DNA of 6,703 nt, taken from IMG/VR virus record IMGVR_UViG_2534682252_000011. The stretch is one strand, 5' to 3'. Below, in pieces: positions 203 through 6,703 of the stretch. Position numbers and translations under genes: made by a program. This DNA comes from a virus (taxonomy: Duplodnaviria; Heunggongvirae; Uroviricota; Caudoviricetes). Within the stretch, counting starts at the first letter, position 1. Each line of letters opens with the position of its first letter. The notes under the pieces are model-generated. The model saw nothing but the letters and a program-made list of their open reading frames with translations, made no database searches and was not told the DNA's origin.

Positions 203-429
203 CCTTAATAAAGCATCTGTAACTGGTTGTTGTTCTGCGGGTTCTGTTCTTCGTTGACATGAGGTTGCCCCGTATTCAGTGTCGCTGATTTGTATTGTCT
301 GAAGTTGTTTTTACGTTAAGTTGATGCAGATCAATTAATACGATACCTGCGTCATAATTAATTATTTGACGTGGTTTGATGGCGTAGATGCACGTTGTGA
401 CATGTAGATGATAATTATTATCATTTTGC

Positions 430-436
430 GGGTCCT
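430..436. other. cosQ: cosQ-like element (gggtcct) about 24-30 bp upstream of the cosN nick
   Basis: Position relative to the genome right end (459) matches where I recall lambda cosQ to lie. The exact cosQ boundaries are from memory. Confidence 0.4.
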
Positions 437-459
437 TTCCGGCGATCCGACAGGTTACG

Positions 460-471
460 GGGCGGCGACCT
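460..471. other. cosN: cosN: 12-nt cohesive-end sequence gggcggcgacct; right genome end ...cgatccgacaggttacg ends at 459
   Basis: Exact match to the canonical lambda cohesive end GGGCGGCGACCT, preceded by the canonical right-end sequence. Nu1 starts about 190 bp downstream, as in lambda. Confidence 0.85.
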
Positions 472-504
472 CGCGGTTTTTCACTATTTATGAAAATTTT
501 CCGG

Positions 505-625
505 TTTAAGGCGTTTCCGTTCTTCTTCGCCGTAACCTAATGTTTTTATTTAAAACACCCCCTGAAAAGAAAGGAAACGACAGGTGCTGAAAACGGGCTT
601 TTTGGCCTCTGTCGTTTCCTTTCTC
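505..625. promoter_or_regulatory. cosB: cosB: terminase small-subunit binding region with R3 (cgtttcc 512-518), an A/T-rich tract at the expected IHF site I1 (536-558), R2 (ggaaacg 573-579, inverted) and R1 (cgtttcc 613-619)
   Basis: Three copies of the cgtttcc / ggaaacg core in the R3-I1-R2-R1 order and orientation known for lambda, between cosN and the Nu1 start. I could not identify a clean IHF consensus by eye. Confidence 0.65.
568..624. repeat. 16-bp perfect inverted repeat (568-583 / 609-624) with a 25-bp spacer; the arms correspond to R2 and R1
   Basis: 568-583 agaaaggaaacgacag is the exact reverse complement of 609-624 ctgtcgtttcctttct. Confidence 0.8.
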
Positions 626-648
626 TGTTTTTGTCCGTGGAATGAACA

Positions 649-1194
649 ATGGAAGTCAACAAAAAGCAGCTGGCTGACATTTTCGGCGCGAGTATCCGTA
701 CCATTCAGAACTGGCAGGAGCAGGGAATGCCCGTTCTGCGGGGTGGTGGCAAGGGTAATGAGGTACTTTATGACTCTGCCGCCGCCATAAAATGGTATGC
801 CGAAAGGGATGCTGAAATTGAGAACGAAAAGCTGCGCCGGGAAGTTGAAGAACTGAGGCAGGACAGCGAGACAGATCTCCAGCCAGGGACTATTGAGTAC
901 GAACGCCATCGACTTACGCGTGCGCAGGCCGACGCACAGGAACTGAAGAATGCCAGAGACTCAGCTGAAGTGGTGGAAACCGCATTCTGTACTTTCGTGC
1001 TGTCGCGGATCGCAGGTGAAATTGCCAGTATTCTCGACGGGATCCCCCTGTCGGTGCAGCGGCGTTTTCCGGAACTGGAAAACCGACATGTTGATTTCCT
1101 GAAACGGGATATCATCAAAGCCATGAACAAAGCAGCCGCGCTGGATGAACTGATACCGGGGTTGCTGAGTGAATATATCGAACAGTCAGGTTAA
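649..1194 (+). CDS. Nu1: Terminase small subunit gpNu1 (181 aa), intact
   Basis: 181-aa ORF beginning MEVNKKQLADIFGASIRTIQNWQEQGMPV, an N-terminal helix-turn-helix, with the LRGGGKGNEV segment. Near-identical to lambda gpNu1 as recalled. Sits immediately downstream of cosB and overlaps the A start by 26 nt. Confidence 0.95.
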   Translation: MEVNKKQLADIFGASIRTIQNWQEQGMPVLRGGGKGNEVLYDSAAAIKWYAERDAEIENEKLRREVEELRQDSETDLQPGTIEYERHRLTRAQADAQELKNARDSAEVVETAFCTFVLSRIAGEIASILDGIPLSVQRRFPELENRHVDFLKRDIIKAMNKAAALDELIPGLLSEYIEQSG

Positions 1195-2896
1195 CAGGCT
1201 GCGGCATTTTGTCCGCGCCGGGCTTCGCTCACTGTTCAGGCCGGAGCCACAGACCGCCGTTGAATGGGCGGATGCCAGTTACTATCTCCCGAAAGAATCC
1301 GCATACCAGGAAGGGCGCTGGGAAACACTGCCCTTTCAGCGGGCCATCATGAATGCGATGGGCAGTGACTACATCCGCGAGGTGAATGTGGTGAAGTCTG
1401 CCCGTGTTGGTTATTCCAAAATGCTGCTGGGTGTTTATGCCTACTTCATAGAGCATAAGCAGCGCAACACCCTTATCTGGTTGCCGACGGATGGTGATGC
1501 CGAGAACTTTATGAAAACCCACGTTGAGCCGACTATTCGTGATATTCCGTCGCTGCTGGCGCTGGCCCCGTGGTATGGCAAAAAGCACCGGGATAACACG
1601 CTCACCATGAAGCGTTTCACCAATGGGCGTGGCTTCTGGTGCCTGGGCGGTAAAGCGGCAAAAAACTACCGTGAAAAGTCAGTGGATGTGGCGGGTTATG
1701 ATGAACTTGCTGCCTTTGATGAGGATATTGAACAGGAAGGCTCTCCGACGTTCCTGGGCGATAAGCGTATTGAAGGCTCGGTCTGGCCAAAGTCCATCCG
1801 TGGCTCCACGCCCAAAGTGAGAGGCACCTGCCAGATTGAGCGTGCAGCCAGTGAATCCCCGCATTTTATGCGTTTTCATGTTGCCTGCCCGCACTGCGGG
1901 GAGGAGCAGTACCTTAAATTTGGCGACAAAGAGACGCCGTTTGGCCTCAAATGGACGCCGGATGATCCCTCCAGCGTGTTTTATCTCTGCGAGCATAATG
2001 CCTGCGTCATCCGTCAGCAGGAGCTGGACTTTACTGATGCCCGTTATATCTGCGAAAAGACCGGGATCTGGACCCGTGATGGCATTCTCTGGTTTTCGTC
2101 ATCCGGTGAAGAGATTGAACCGCCTGACAGTGTGACCTTTCACATCTGGACGGCGTACAGCCCGTTCACCACCTGGGTTCAGATTGTCAAAGACTGGATG
2201 AAGACGAAAGGGGATACGGGAAAACGTAAAACCTTCGTGAACACCACGCTCGGTGAGACATGGGAAGCGAAGATCGGCGAACGTCCGGATGCTGAAGTGA
2301 TGGCAGAGCGGAAAGAGCATTATTCAGCGTCCGTTCCTGACCGTGTGGCTTACCTGACCGCCGGTATCGACTCCCAGCTGGATCGCTACGAAATGCGCGT
2401 ATGGGGATGGGGGCCGGGTGAGGAAAGCTGGCTGATTGATCGGCAGATTATTATGGGCCGCCACGACGATGAACAGACGCTGCTGCGTGTGGATGAGGCC
2501 ATCAATAAAACCTATACCCGCCGGAATGGTGCAGAAATGTCGGTATCCCGTATCTGCTGGGATACTGGCGGGATTGACCCGACTATTGTGTATGAACGCT
2601 CGAAAAAGCATGGGCTGTTCCGGGTGATCCCCATTAAAGGGGCATCCGTCTACGGAAAGCCGGTGGCCAGCATGCCACGTAAGCGAAACAAAAACGGGGT
2701 TTACCTTACCGAAATCGGTACGGATACCGCGAAAGAGCAGATTTATAACCGCTTCACACTGACGCCGGAAGGGGATGAACCGCTTCCCGGTGCCGTTCAC
2801 TTCCCGAATAACCCGGATATTTTTGATCTGACCGAAGCGCAGCAACTGACTGCTGAAGAGCAGGTCGAAAAATGGGTGGATGGCAGGAAAAAATAA
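1169..2896 (+). CDS. A: Terminase large subunit gpA, reading frame ends prematurely (575 codons, where lambda gpA has 641 as I recall)
   Basis: GTG start at 1169 giving MNISNSQVNRLRHFVRAGL...; contains VVKSARVGYSK. Roughly 99% identical to recalled lambda gpA until ...EKWVDGRKK, then TAA at 2894-2896. Confidence 0.9.
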   Translation: MNISNSQVNRLRHFVRAGLRSLFRPEPQTAVEWADASYYLPKESAYQEGRWETLPFQRAIMNAMGSDYIREVNVVKSARVGYSKMLLGVYAYFIEHKQRNTLIWLPTDGDAENFMKTHVEPTIRDIPSLLALAPWYGKKHRDNTLTMKRFTNGRGFWCLGGKAAKNYREKSVDVAGYDELAAFDEDIEQEGSPTFLGDKRIEGSVWPKSIRGSTPKVRGTCQIERAASESPHFMRFHVACPHCGEEQYLKFGDKETPFGLKWTPDDPSSVFYLCEHNACVIRQQELDFTDARYICEKTGIWTRDGILWFSSSGEEIEPPDSVTFHIWTAYSPFTTWVQIVKDWMKTKGDTGKRKTFVNTTLGETWEAKIGERPDAEVMAERKEHYSASVPDRVAYLTAGIDSQLDRYEMRVWGWGPGEESWLIDRQIIMGRHDDEQTLLRVDEAINKTYTRRNGAEMSVSRICWDTGGIDPTIVYERSKKHGLFRVIPIKGASVYGKPVASMPRKRNKNGVYLTEIGTDTAKEQIYNRFTLTPEGDEPLPGAVHFPNNPDIFDLTEAQQLTAEEQVEKWVDGRKK

Positions 2897-3095
2897 CTGT
2901 GGGACAGCAAAAAGACGACGCAATGAGGCGCTCGACTGCTTCGTTTATGCGCTGGCGGCGCTGCGCATCAGTATTTCCCGCTGGCAGCTGGATCTCAGTG
3001 CACTGCTGGCGAGCCTGCAGGAAGAGGATGGTGCAGCAACCAACAAGAAAACACTGGCAGAATACGCCCGTGCCTTATCCGGAGAGGATGAATGA
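2897..3095 (+). pseudogene. A: Displaced 3' end of A: LWDSKK still in the A frame (2897-2914), then [59 protein letters not shown] in the +1 frame, ending in the ATGA overlap with W
   Basis: Frame-0 ORF 2880..3095 encodes the expected gpA C-terminus and ends exactly at the W start (atg 3092-3094 / tga 3093-3095). Recovering the ancestral protein needs both readthrough of TAA 2894-2896 and a +1 shift near 2915. Confidence 0.7.
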
Positions 3096-4900
3096 CGCGA
3101 CAGGAAGAACTTGCCGCTGCCCGTGCGGCACTGCATGTACCTGATGTACAGGAAAACGGGTGGCAACGGTTACAGAAAGACGGACGGCGAGTGGAGTTTA
3201 CGACCACTTCCGTGTCTGACCTGAAAAAATACATTGCTGAGCTGGAAGTGCAGACCGGCATGACACAGCGACGCAGGGACCTGCAGGATTTTATGTATGA
3301 AAATCGTCCACCATTCCCACCCTTCGTGGGGCCGGACGGCATGACATCGCTGCGTGAATATGCCGGTTATCACGGCGGTGGCAGCGGATTTGGTGGGCAG
3401 TTGCGGGCGTGGAACCCACCGGGTGAAAGTGTGGATGCAGCCCTGCTGCCCAACTTTACCCGTGGCAATGCCCGCGCAGACGATCTGGTACGCAATAACG
3501 GCTATGCCGCCAACGCCATCCAGCTGCATCAGGATCATATCGTCGGGTCTTTTTTCCGGCTCAGTCATCGCCCAAGCTGGCGCTATCTGGGCATCGGGGA
3601 GGAAGAAGCCCGTGCCTTTTCCCGCGAGGTTGAAGCGGCATGGAAAGAGTTTGCCGAAGATGACTGTTGCTGCATTGACGTTGAGCGAAAACGCACGTTT
3701 ACCATGATGATTCGGGAAGGTGTGGCCATGCACGCCTTTAACGGTGAACTGTTCGTTCAGGCCACCTGGGATACCCGTCCCTCGCGACTGTTCCGGACAC
3801 AGTTCCGGATGGTCAGCCCGAAGCGCATCAGCAACCCGAACAATACCAGCGACAGCCGGAACTGCCGTGCCGGTGTGCAGATTAATGACAGCGGTGCGGC
3901 GCTGGGATATTACGTCAGCGAGGACGGGTATCCTGGCTGGATGCCGCAGAAATGGACATGGATACCCCGCGAGTTACCCGGCGGGCGCGCTTCGTTCATT
4001 CACGTCTTTGAACCCGTGGAGGACGGGCAGACCCGCGGTGCAAATGTGTTTTACAGCGTGATGGAGCAGATGAAGATGCTCGACACGCTGCAGAACACGC
4101 AGCTGCAGAGCGCCATTGTGAAGGCGATGTATGCCGCCACCATTGAGAGTGAGCTGGATACGCAGTCAGCGATGGATTTTATTCTGGGCGCGAACAGTCA
4201 GGAGCAGCGGGAAAGGCTGACCGGCTGGATTGGTGAAATTGCCGCGTATTACGCCGCAGCACCGGTCCGTCTGGGAGGCGCAAGAGTGCCGCACCTGATG
4301 CCGGGGGACTCACTGAACCTGCAGACGGCTCAGGACACGGATAACGGCTACTCCGTGTTTGAGCAGTCACTGCTGCGGTATATCGCTGCCGGGCTGGGTG
4401 TCTCGTATGAGCAGCTTTCCCGGAATTACGCCCAGATGAGCTACTCCACGGCACGGGCCAGTGCGAACGAGTCGTGGGCGTACTTTATGGGGCGGCGAAA
4501 ATTCGTCGCATCCCGTCAGGCGAGCCAGATGTTTCTGTGCTGGCTGGAAGAGGCCATCGTTCGCCGCGTGGTGACGTTACCTTCAAAAGCGCGCTTCAGC
4601 TTTCAGGAAGCCCGCAGTGCCTGGGGGAACTGCGACTGGATAGGCTCCGGTCGTATGGCCATCGATGGTCTGAAAGAAGTTCAGGAAGCGGTGATGCTGA
4701 TAGAAGCCGGACTGAGCACCTACGAGAAAGAGTGCGCGAAACGCGGTGACGACTATCAGGAAATTTTTGCCCAGCAGGTCCGTGAAACGATGGAGCGCCG
4801 CGCAGCTGGTCTTAAACCGCCCGCCTGGGCGGCTGCGGCATTTGAATCCGGGCTGCGACAATCAACAGAGGAGGAGAAGAGTGACAGCAGAGCTGCGTAA
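3092..4900 (+). CDS. B: Fused reading frame: head-tail joining protein gpW N-terminus (about 62 aa, no stop) continuous with portal protein gpB; an intact portal could also start at the internal ATG 3293
   Basis: 602-aa ORF starts [15 protein letters not shown]... (gpW), has the SD ggagagg at 3081-3087, and continues without a stop into [23 protein letters not shown]...[10 protein letters not shown] (gpB). The lambda-position W stop tga (3298-3300) and B start atg (3297-3299) are both out of frame here. In-frame ATG at 3293 with agga at 3285-3288 would give a 535-aa portal. Confidence 0.85.
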
Positions 4901-6202
4901 TCTCCCGCATATTGCCAGCATGGCTTTTAATGAGCCGCTGATGCTTGAACCCGCCTATGCGCGGGTTTTCTTTTGTGCGCTTGCAGGCCAGCTTGGGATC
5001 AGCCGCCTGACGGATGCAGTATCCGGCGACAGCCTGACTGCCGGAGAGGCACCCGCGGCGCTGGCGTTATCCGGTGATGATGACGGACCACGACAGGCCC
5101 GGAGTTATCAGGTCATGAACGGCATCGCCGTGCTGCCGGTGTCCGGTACGCTGGTCAGCCGGACGCGGGCGCTGCAGCCGTATTCGGGAATGACCGGTTA
5201 CAACGGCATTATCGCCCGTCTGCAACAGGCTGCCAGCGATCCGATGGTGGACGGCATTCTGCTCGATATGGACACACCGGGCGGGATGGTGGCGGGAGCA
5301 TTTGACTGTGCTGACATCATCGCCCCGTGTGCGAGACATAAAAACCGGTATGGGCGCTGGCCAACGACATGAACTGCAGTGCAGGTCAGCTGCTTGCCAG
5401 CGCCGCCTCCCGGCGTCTGGTCACGCAGACCGCCCGGACAGGCTCCATCGGCGTCATGATGGCTCACAGTAATTACGGTGCTGCCCTGGAGAAACAGGGC
5501 GTGGAAATCACGCTGATTTACAGCGGCAGCCATAAGGTGGATGGCAACCCCTACAGCCATCTACCGGGTGATGTCCGGGAAACACTGCAGTCCCGGATGG
5601 ATGCAACCCGCCGGATGTTTGCGCAGAAGGTGTCGGCATATACCGGCCTGTCCGTGCAGGCTGTGCTGGATACCGAGGCTGCAGTGTACAGCGGTCAGGA
5701 GGCCATTGATGCCGGACTGGCTGATGAACTTGTCAACAGCACCGATGCGATCACCGTTATGCGTGATGCACTGGATGCACGTAAATCCCGTCTCTCAGGA
5801 GGGCGAATGACCAAAGAGACTCAATCAACAACTGTTTCAGCCACTGCTTCGCAGGCTGACGTTACTGGCGTGGTGCCAGCGACGGAGGGCGAAAACGCCA
5901 GCGCGGCGCAGCCGGACGTGAACGCGCAGATCACCGCTGCGGTTGCGGCAGAAAACAGCCGCATTATGGGGATCCTCAACTGTGAGGAGGCTCACGGACG
6001 CGAAGAACAGGCCCGCGTGCTGGCAGAAACCCCCGGTATGACCGTGGAAACGGCCCGCCGCATTCTGGCCGCAGCACCACAGAGTGCACAGGCGCGCAGT
6101 GATACTGCGCTGGATCGTCTGATGCAGGGGGCACCGGCACCGCTGGCTGCAGGTAACCCGGCATCTGATGCCGTTAACGATTTGCTGAACACACCAGTGT
6201 AA
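4881..6202 (+). pseudogene. C: Capsid assembly protease gpC (S49/ClpP-like), split by a net +2 frameshift at about 5323-5344 into ORF pieces 4881..5372 and 5369..6202
   Basis: GTG start 4881 with strong SD gaggagga (4869-4876) and a 20-nt overlap with the B stop, as in lambda. Frame 0 reads ...GAFDCADIIAPCARHKNRYGRWPTT then stops; the gpC continuation PVWALANDMNCSAGQLLASAASRR... is in frame 2. The ORF-track start at 4746 is inside B and is not the real start. Confidence 0.8.
5597..6202 (+). CDS. Nu3: Scaffolding protein gpNu3 (201 aa), nested in-frame in the 3' part of C, intact
   Basis: Internal ATG at 5597 (MDATRRMFAQKVSAYTGL...) sharing the C stop at 6200-6202. Length and position match lambda Nu3. 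It lies downstream of the C frameshift, so it is unaffected. Confidence 0.75.
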   Translation: MDATRRMFAQKVSAYTGLSVQAVLDTEAAVYSGQEAIDAGLADELVNSTDAITVMRDALDARKSRLSGGRMTKETQSTTVSATASQADVTGVVPATEGENASAAQPDVNAQITAAVAAENSRIMGILNCEEAHGREEQARVLAETPGMTVETARRILAAAPQSAQARSDTALDRLMQGAPAPLAAGNPASDAVNDLLNTPV

Positions 6203-6211
6203 GGGATGTTT

Positions 6212-6544
6212 ATGACGAGCAAAGAAACCTTTACCCATTACCAGCCGCTGGGCAACAGTGACCCGGCTCATACCGCAACCGCGCCCGGCGGATTGAGTGC
6301 GAAAGCGCCTGCAATGACCCCGCTGATGCTGGACACCTCCAGCCGTAAGCTGGTTGCGTGGGATGGCACCACCGACGGTGCTGCCGTTGGCATTCTTGCG
6401 GTTGCTGCTGACCAGACCAGCACCACGCTGACGTTCTACAAGTCCGGCACGTTCCGTTATGAGGATGTGCTCTGGCCGGAGGCTGCCAGCGACGAGACGA
6501 AAAAACGGACCGCGTTTGCCGGAACGGCAATCAGCATCGTTTAA
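6212..6544 (+). CDS. D: Head decoration protein gpD (110 aa), intact
   Basis: [27 protein letters not shown]...AISIV, near-identical to recalled lambda gpD. aaggga SD at 6201-6206; starts 9 nt after the C stop, as in lambda. The ORF-track start at 6206 (MFM...) is probably not used. Confidence 0.95.
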
Positions 6545-6561
6545 CCTGACCCTTCATCACT

Positions 6562-6587
6562 AAAGGCCGCCTGTGCGGCTTTTTTTA
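6562..6587 (+). terminator. D-E intergenic hairpin (stem 6566-6570 gccgc / 6575-6579 gcggc, loop ctgt) followed by a run of 7 T; putative attenuator or RNA-stability element
   Basis: Inverted repeat plus T-run read directly from the sequence. Its function is not known to me, and full termination here would be odd because E is needed in amounts similar to D. Confidence 0.3.
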
Positions 6588-6599
6588 CGGGATTTTTTT

Positions 6600-6703
6600 A
6601 TGTCGATGTACACAACCGCCCAACTGCTGGCGGCAAATGAGCAGAAATTTAAGTTTGATCCGCTGTTTCTGCGTCTCTTTTTCCGTGAGAGCTATCCCTT
6701 CAC
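6600..6703 (+). CDS. E: Major capsid protein gpE, 5' partial (first 35 codons; runs off the window end)
   Basis: ATG at 6600 giving MSMYTTAQLLAANEQKFKFDPLFLRLFFRESYPF, matching the lambda gpE N-terminus as recalled. Confidence 0.9.
   Translation, partial: MSMYTTAQLLAANEQKFKFDPLFLRLFFRESYPF

Follow-up and report, generated by a model that had tools for sequence, protein, structure and literature searches.

Gene A in the window

The gene for the terminase large subunit in a lambda-type prophage module from Escherichia coli PA7 is written with an in-frame TAA and, shortly after it, a shift of frame. This raises the question of whether the bacterium carries a truncated terminase or whether the interruption belongs to the draft sequence. 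We analysed the whole stretch of DNA in which the gene lies (6,703 bp; hereafter, the window), which is the entire contig AMTQ01000039.1 of draft assembly GCA_000302735.1; the proteins of this contig, EKH02009 to EKH02013, carry the label Escherichia coli PA7. The window holds a lambda-type head-gene module, comprising cosN, Nu1, A, W, B, C/Nu3, D and the start of E. It matched 144 phage records and 4,639 of the 5,426 complete E. coli genomes that were searched. The best matches, which cover 225-6703 at 99.78% identity, came from O157:H7 genomes, among them Sakai, in which the matching element is prophage Sp8, re-sequenced EDL933, which has the equivalent prophage, and many others. Gene A in the Sakai Sp8 and EDL933 matches is an intact CDS of 1926 nt, annotated as phage terminase large subunit. 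The features of the window are listed here with the basis of each assignment in brackets.

460..471, + strand: cosN cohesive-end sequence, GGGCGGCGACCT, known as the cohesive end of lambda (alignment of the window with Sp8 and with an ISEc8-interrupted prophage)
649..1194, + strand: Nu1, terminase small subunit, intact, 181 aa (ORF list; PF07471; Sakai annotation ECs_1629)
1169..2896, + strand: gene A as written, 575 codons and then TAA, with ATPase and nuclease domains (ORF list, Pfam)
2894..2895, + strand: first lesion, AT written TA at the end of an A7 run (alignment with intact homologues)
2915..2915, + strand: second lesion, an extra A after AAAAAG (alignment with intact homologues)
2916..3095, + strand: displaced 3' end of gene A (RRNEALDC...SGEDE and the stop), the prohead/portal-binding tail, in the +1 frame relative to 1169
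3092..3300, + strand: gene W, with three private 1-nt insertions and one deletion (alignment with Sp8)
3297..4900, + strand: gene B (portal), with private insertions at 3305 and 3326 and a substitution at 4284 (alignment with Sp8)
4881..6202, + strand: gene C/Nu3 (S49 prohead protease and scaffold), with private insertions at 5323 and 5340 (ORF list, alignment)
6212..6544, + strand: gene D (head decoration), intact (ORF list, Pfam, Sakai annotation)
6600..6703, + strand: 5' end of gene E (major capsid), cut by the contig end (transferred from Sakai ECs_1635 through the alignment)

Translation of gene A from its GTG start at 1169 gave 575 codons that end in EKWVDGRKK and are followed by TAA at 2894-2896. 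Read past this stop, the frame continues as RKK, stop, LWDSKKTTQ, and the +1 frame, which opens at 2895 with NCGTAKRRRNEALDC..., runs to a stop at 3095 and overlaps the ATG of W at 3092. The original prediction had described these same elements, namely the TAA after VDGRKK, LWDSKK next in the frame of A, and RRNEALDC...SGEDE in the +1 frame up to the W start, and the translations agree with it on all three. It had also put the truncation at 65 codons short of the natural end. Natural gpA is 641 aa long and 66 of its residues are lost here, counting the stop at codon 576 and the 65 codons beyond it.

Two lesions about 20 nt apart had been predicted, one at the end of the A-run and one near 2915, and alignment with intact homologues placed them at the same sites. 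At the first, AAAAAAATACTG in the intact homologues is written AAAAAATAACTG in the window, with bases 2894 and 2895 swapped. Codon 576, ATA (Ile) in the intact gene, thereby becomes TAA, and the change is equivalent to A7>A6 together with TA>TAA, that is, to A7-T-A written as A6-T-AA. At the second, one extra A at 2915 converts AAAAAG-CGACGC to AAAAAGACGACGC (the unlesioned sequence at this site being AAAAAGCGACGC) and leaves the last 60 codons of A in the +1 frame. The displaced tail is annotated in the source as a separate ORF of 71 aa (2880-3095, EKH02010.1).

The assignment of the gene to the lambda gpA type of terminase was borne out as well. Precomputed Pfam matches in the 575-aa product include GpA_ATPase (PF05876, the N-terminal packaging ATPase) and GpA_nuclease (PF20454, the endonuclease), and gpA of the intact Sp8 homologue is identical to lambda gpA at 636 of 641 residues. 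The gene also has the context of a gpA-type TerL, lying downstream of cos and Nu1, overlapping W and being followed by the portal gene B. What the written gene lacks is the in-frame C-terminal prohead/portal-binding tail of a 641-aa product, and this tail is regained once both lesions are undone: swapping 2894 and 2895 back and deleting 2915 gave a 641-codon ORF with a product identical to Sp8 gpA. The stop and the frame shift are a deterministic reading of the letters, for which chance is not an issue; the issue is whether those letters are the true sequence of the organism.

Private differences are clustered and dominated by single-base indels

Base-by-base alignment showed 505-6703 of the window to be the same as Sp8 of Sakai and EDL933 but for 12 private columns, which comprise the AT>TA swap at 2894/2895, nine 1-nt indels (insertions at 2915, 3138, 3147, 3170, 3305, 3326, 5323 and 5340, and a deletion after 3275) and one substitution, at 4284. 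In a five-way alignment of 6,200 columns, the natural relatives Sp8, the Stx1 phage, lambda and 2H10 differed from one another at 192 columns, every one of which was a substitution and none an indel, whereas the differences private to the window amounted to nine indels and three substitution columns (Fisher p = 1.6e-13). The large excess of substitutions over indels that would mark a genuine pseudogene was not found among these private columns. The lesions are private to the window, dominated by indels and clustered, with nine events in 433 bp (2894-3326) and two in 18 bp (5323-5340), and because Sp8 itself has no private column in the five-way alignment, their removal gives Sp8 exactly.

Gene A is one of four consecutive essential head genes (A, W, B and C) that are frameshifted with essentially no substitutions alongside. 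Within W, the insertions at 3138, 3147 and 3170 garble 11 residues before the frame is regained, the deletion after 3275 removes the stop codon, and W and B read as a single ORF of 602 aa (3092-4900). We observed that the six private 1-nt indels at 3138, 3147, 3170, 3275, 3305 and 3326 sum to an in-frame join, which gives the region the look of a W-portal fusion. This apparent fusion at 3092-4900 belongs to the same error set as the lesions in A. C/Nu3 is split into an ORF of 163 aa (4881-5372), whose product was found in E. coli PA7 only, and one of 277 aa (5369-6202), and both of its insertions change the length of a homopolymer (C3>C4 at 5323 and A4>A5 at 5340). The sole isolated private substitution, at 4284, is an A>G change that turns AAA into AGA (Lys329Arg in portal B), and it may be a real strain SNP or a further error.

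Homopolymer-length changes account for five of the events (A7>A6 with A1>A2, T1>T2, G4>G3, C3>C4 and A4>A5). The change from A7-T-A to A6-T-AA is a known product of incomplete extension in flow sequencing, among the error modes of 454. The five insertions outside homopolymers were all compatible with false-positive flows in the TACG order, a fit that is weak and does not discriminate, since its chance expectation is 0.125; that half of the insertions are not homopolymer extensions counts against an artefact. The homopolymer pattern and the flow-compatible insertions together are suggestive of low-coverage sequencing by a flow-based chemistry, either 454 or Ion Torrent.

Searches for the lesions in other genomes

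The lesions were then sought as exact matches. A 90-mer covering 2860-2949 was matched exactly at none of 4,510 homologous places, which lie in 3,189 complete E. coli genomes, and in none of 80 phage records; a second 90-mer, covering 3100-3189, was likewise without an exact match at 4,511 places in complete E. coli genomes. The lesion-specific products of 71, 163 and 257 aa were found on one contig only among the 153 billion gene positions of the collection searched. Recurrence in independent genomes or assemblies, as expected of a genuine pseudogene, was seen at none of the 4,510 places and in none of the 80 phage records. What was found instead has the marks of consensus error: differences private to one draft assembly, gathered at or near homopolymers, and a corrected sequence that is a known intact allele. 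An uninterrupted 641-codon ORF from 1169 to 3095, which the original prediction had itself named as the outcome that would speak against it, is present in every other copy and in the window with its lesions undone. The apparent defects in A, W/B and C vanish on comparison with about 4,500 other copies of the same DNA.

Ten other draft contigs carry the same 575-aa product, and we considered them as independent support for the stop. We rejected them, as these contigs merely end at ...GGAAAAAAAT, with the A7-T intact; their sequence is intact up to the last bases (...GGCAGGAAAAAAAT), and they hold partial genes at contig ends and not copies of the TAA. Given the very many draft assemblies of O157, a few contig ends within a range of three bases are no evidence of a lesion. 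Several unrelated drafts break their contigs within three bases of the lesion site (the equivalent of 2893-2895 of the window). These breaks probably reflect a repeat boundary, the last SNP between Sp8 and the Stx1 phage being at 2830 and the next at 3282. With such a boundary and so large a number of O157 drafts, their coincidence with the lesion site is unremarkable.

Terminase pseudogenes are common elsewhere, and the A7 run itself is frameshifted in several finished genomes. The run is A6, not A7, in the complete genomes of O121 RM8352 and of five other STEC or other E. coli; the terminase gene at the A6 run is annotated as 'frameshifted' (for example, I3S_RS10290 in O121 RM8352), and a leftover C-terminal ORF of 73 aa (MGGWQEKILWDSKK...) that matches the A6 form lies on 328 contigs. 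In view of these finished genomes and of the 328 contigs, there is nothing implausible as such in a real lesion at the A7 run. A 72-aa in-frame fragment (MDGRKKILWDSKK...) was also seen, on 353 contigs; their accessions are from E. coli, with one source name Shigella sonnei.

Prophages of O157 are often genuinely defective. If the lesions were real, PA7 would harbour a decaying, packaging-defective Sp8-like prophage with a 575-residue A that lacks the docking tail and with W, B and C inactivated. Frameshifted gpA genes in finished genomes, some of them at the same A7 run, speak for this, as does the report of AMTQ01000039.1 in two samples, the second of which may not be an independent assembly. 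The functional side is also sound. The C terminus of TerL contacts the portal, and in lambda Aam42 the absence of the last five gpA residues already abolishes prohead binding while leaving an enzyme that cuts cos (PMC4856287). The lesions themselves point the other way. Nine indels accompany one isolated substitution, against 0 indels and 192 substitutions among the natural relatives; nine events crowd into 433 bp of a sequence that matches Sp8 at all its other bases; an unusual insertion, ATG[T]AC, appears at two sites 9 bp from each other; and the lesions were in no other genome, phage record or assembly searched. We consider real lesions unlikely, and even if real they would make the prophage no more than an ordinary defective one.

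The interpretation in the original prediction was thus partly supported. That a terminase without its tail would fail to dock onto proheads holds in principle, as Aam42 illustrates, but it does not carry over to a real PA7 enzyme, the lesions being private to one contig; the inference applies only if the written sequence is real. The claim that the truncated terminase is real runs against the 12 private differences, nine of them 1-nt indels, which also wreck W, B and C.

We also asked whether translation could bridge the interruption. If ribosomes underwent a programmed +1 frameshift at AAA-TAA-C (2891-2897), the 575-residue part and the tail would be made as one chain, a near-full-length gpA. 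This is formally possible, since the +1 frame, open from 2895, extends to RRNEALDC...SGEDE, and an AGGA lies just upstream. However, none of the approximately 4,500 homologues conserves the site, each having AAAAAAATACTG with an in-frame tail, and seven residues would be replaced in the product. W, B and C, moreover, carry the same kind of lesion and have no such rescue. This lack of conservation and the similar breakage of the adjacent genes led us to reject programmed frameshifting, whose likelihood we regard as vanishingly small. It is extremely unlikely that the lesions are present in PA7 DNA and that a +1 slip gives a gpA with a seven-residue substitution, or that a private burst of frameshifts silences the four head genes.

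Another source of insertion-like differences would be the collapse of paralogous O157 prophage copies during assembly, with SNPs between the copies written as two adjacent bases. About seven places per O157 genome match the window, other draft assemblies break their contigs in the same region, and the left end of the contig combines two prophage types, all of which would fit such a collapse. Yet only two places per O157 genome match the 90-mer, the other copies being approximately 66-69% identical. The only candidate for co-assembly, the Stx1 phage (98.9%), does not differ from Sp8 at any of the lesion sites, and wherever a SNP separates the two, the window carries the Sp8 allele. We therefore rejected the splitting of SNPs from collapsed paralogues: in the alignment of the window, Sp8 and the Stx1 phage, which addresses co-assembling paralogues only, no lesion coincides with a paralogue SNP. 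This origin of the differences is very unlikely.

At the hybrid left end, 1-360 is a 100% match to another O157 prophage, one in which Nu1 is interrupted by ISEc8, and from 477 onwards the window carries Sp8 alleles. The switch lies in a shared segment, 361-476, which runs up to and including cosN (460-471). The contiguous stretch 1-1200 of the window was found in no complete E. coli genome. The junction could be an assembly chimera across the shared repeat or a natural recombinant at cos, and it looks chimeric.

Probable origin of the stop and comparison with known systems

These comparisons of sequence indicate that the TAA at 2894-2896 and the frameshift are very probably a sequencing or consensus artefact in the draft contig, with no truncated enzyme behind them. 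On this explanation the DNA beneath the errors would be O157:H7 prophage Sp8, and the contig would represent 6.7 kb of lambda-like prophage head genes. The TAA and the extra A at 2915 would be two members of one set of base-calling or consensus errors, the rest of which would consist of eight 1-nt indels and one substitution, and the errors would be gathered mainly in 2894-3326 and 5323-5340, two stretches with poor support. The true gene A of PA7 is most likely an intact 641-codon ORF that encodes a normal gpA-type terminase.

An artefact of this kind is ordinary and not novel. Taken as written, the sequence would imply a non-docking terminase, a W-portal fusion and a split prohead protease. 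The case is a caution that draft contigs of multi-copy O157 prophages are unfit for calling the inactivation of prophage genes without read support.

The window resembles lambda and Sp8 (Sakai ECs_1630; EDL933 WP_001027365.1) in its gene order, cos-Nu1-A-W-B-C-D-E, and in the overlaps of Nu1 with A and of A with W, and differs from both at codon 576, which is TAA, and in the shift to the +1 frame that follows after 20 nt. Like lambda Aam42, the written gene is a C-terminal truncation of gpA that removes the prohead-binding end, and the same phenotype would be predicted from it; however, Aam42 results from one verified mutation and lacks 5 residues, whereas the window is short of 66 and its lesion is probably absent from the DNA. 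With the A7>A6 pseudogenes, such as that of O121 RM8352, the window shares the affected homopolymer and a leftover C-terminal ORF. Those pseudogenes arise from a single -1 event that is found in many genomes, whereas the window has A6-T-AA and a second insertion, on one contig only, and, unlike them, eight more indels in the next genes. It also resembles the errors of flow-based or low-coverage drafts, in which private, clustered and indel-dominated differences stand in otherwise identical sequence; half of the differences in the window are changes of homopolymer length.
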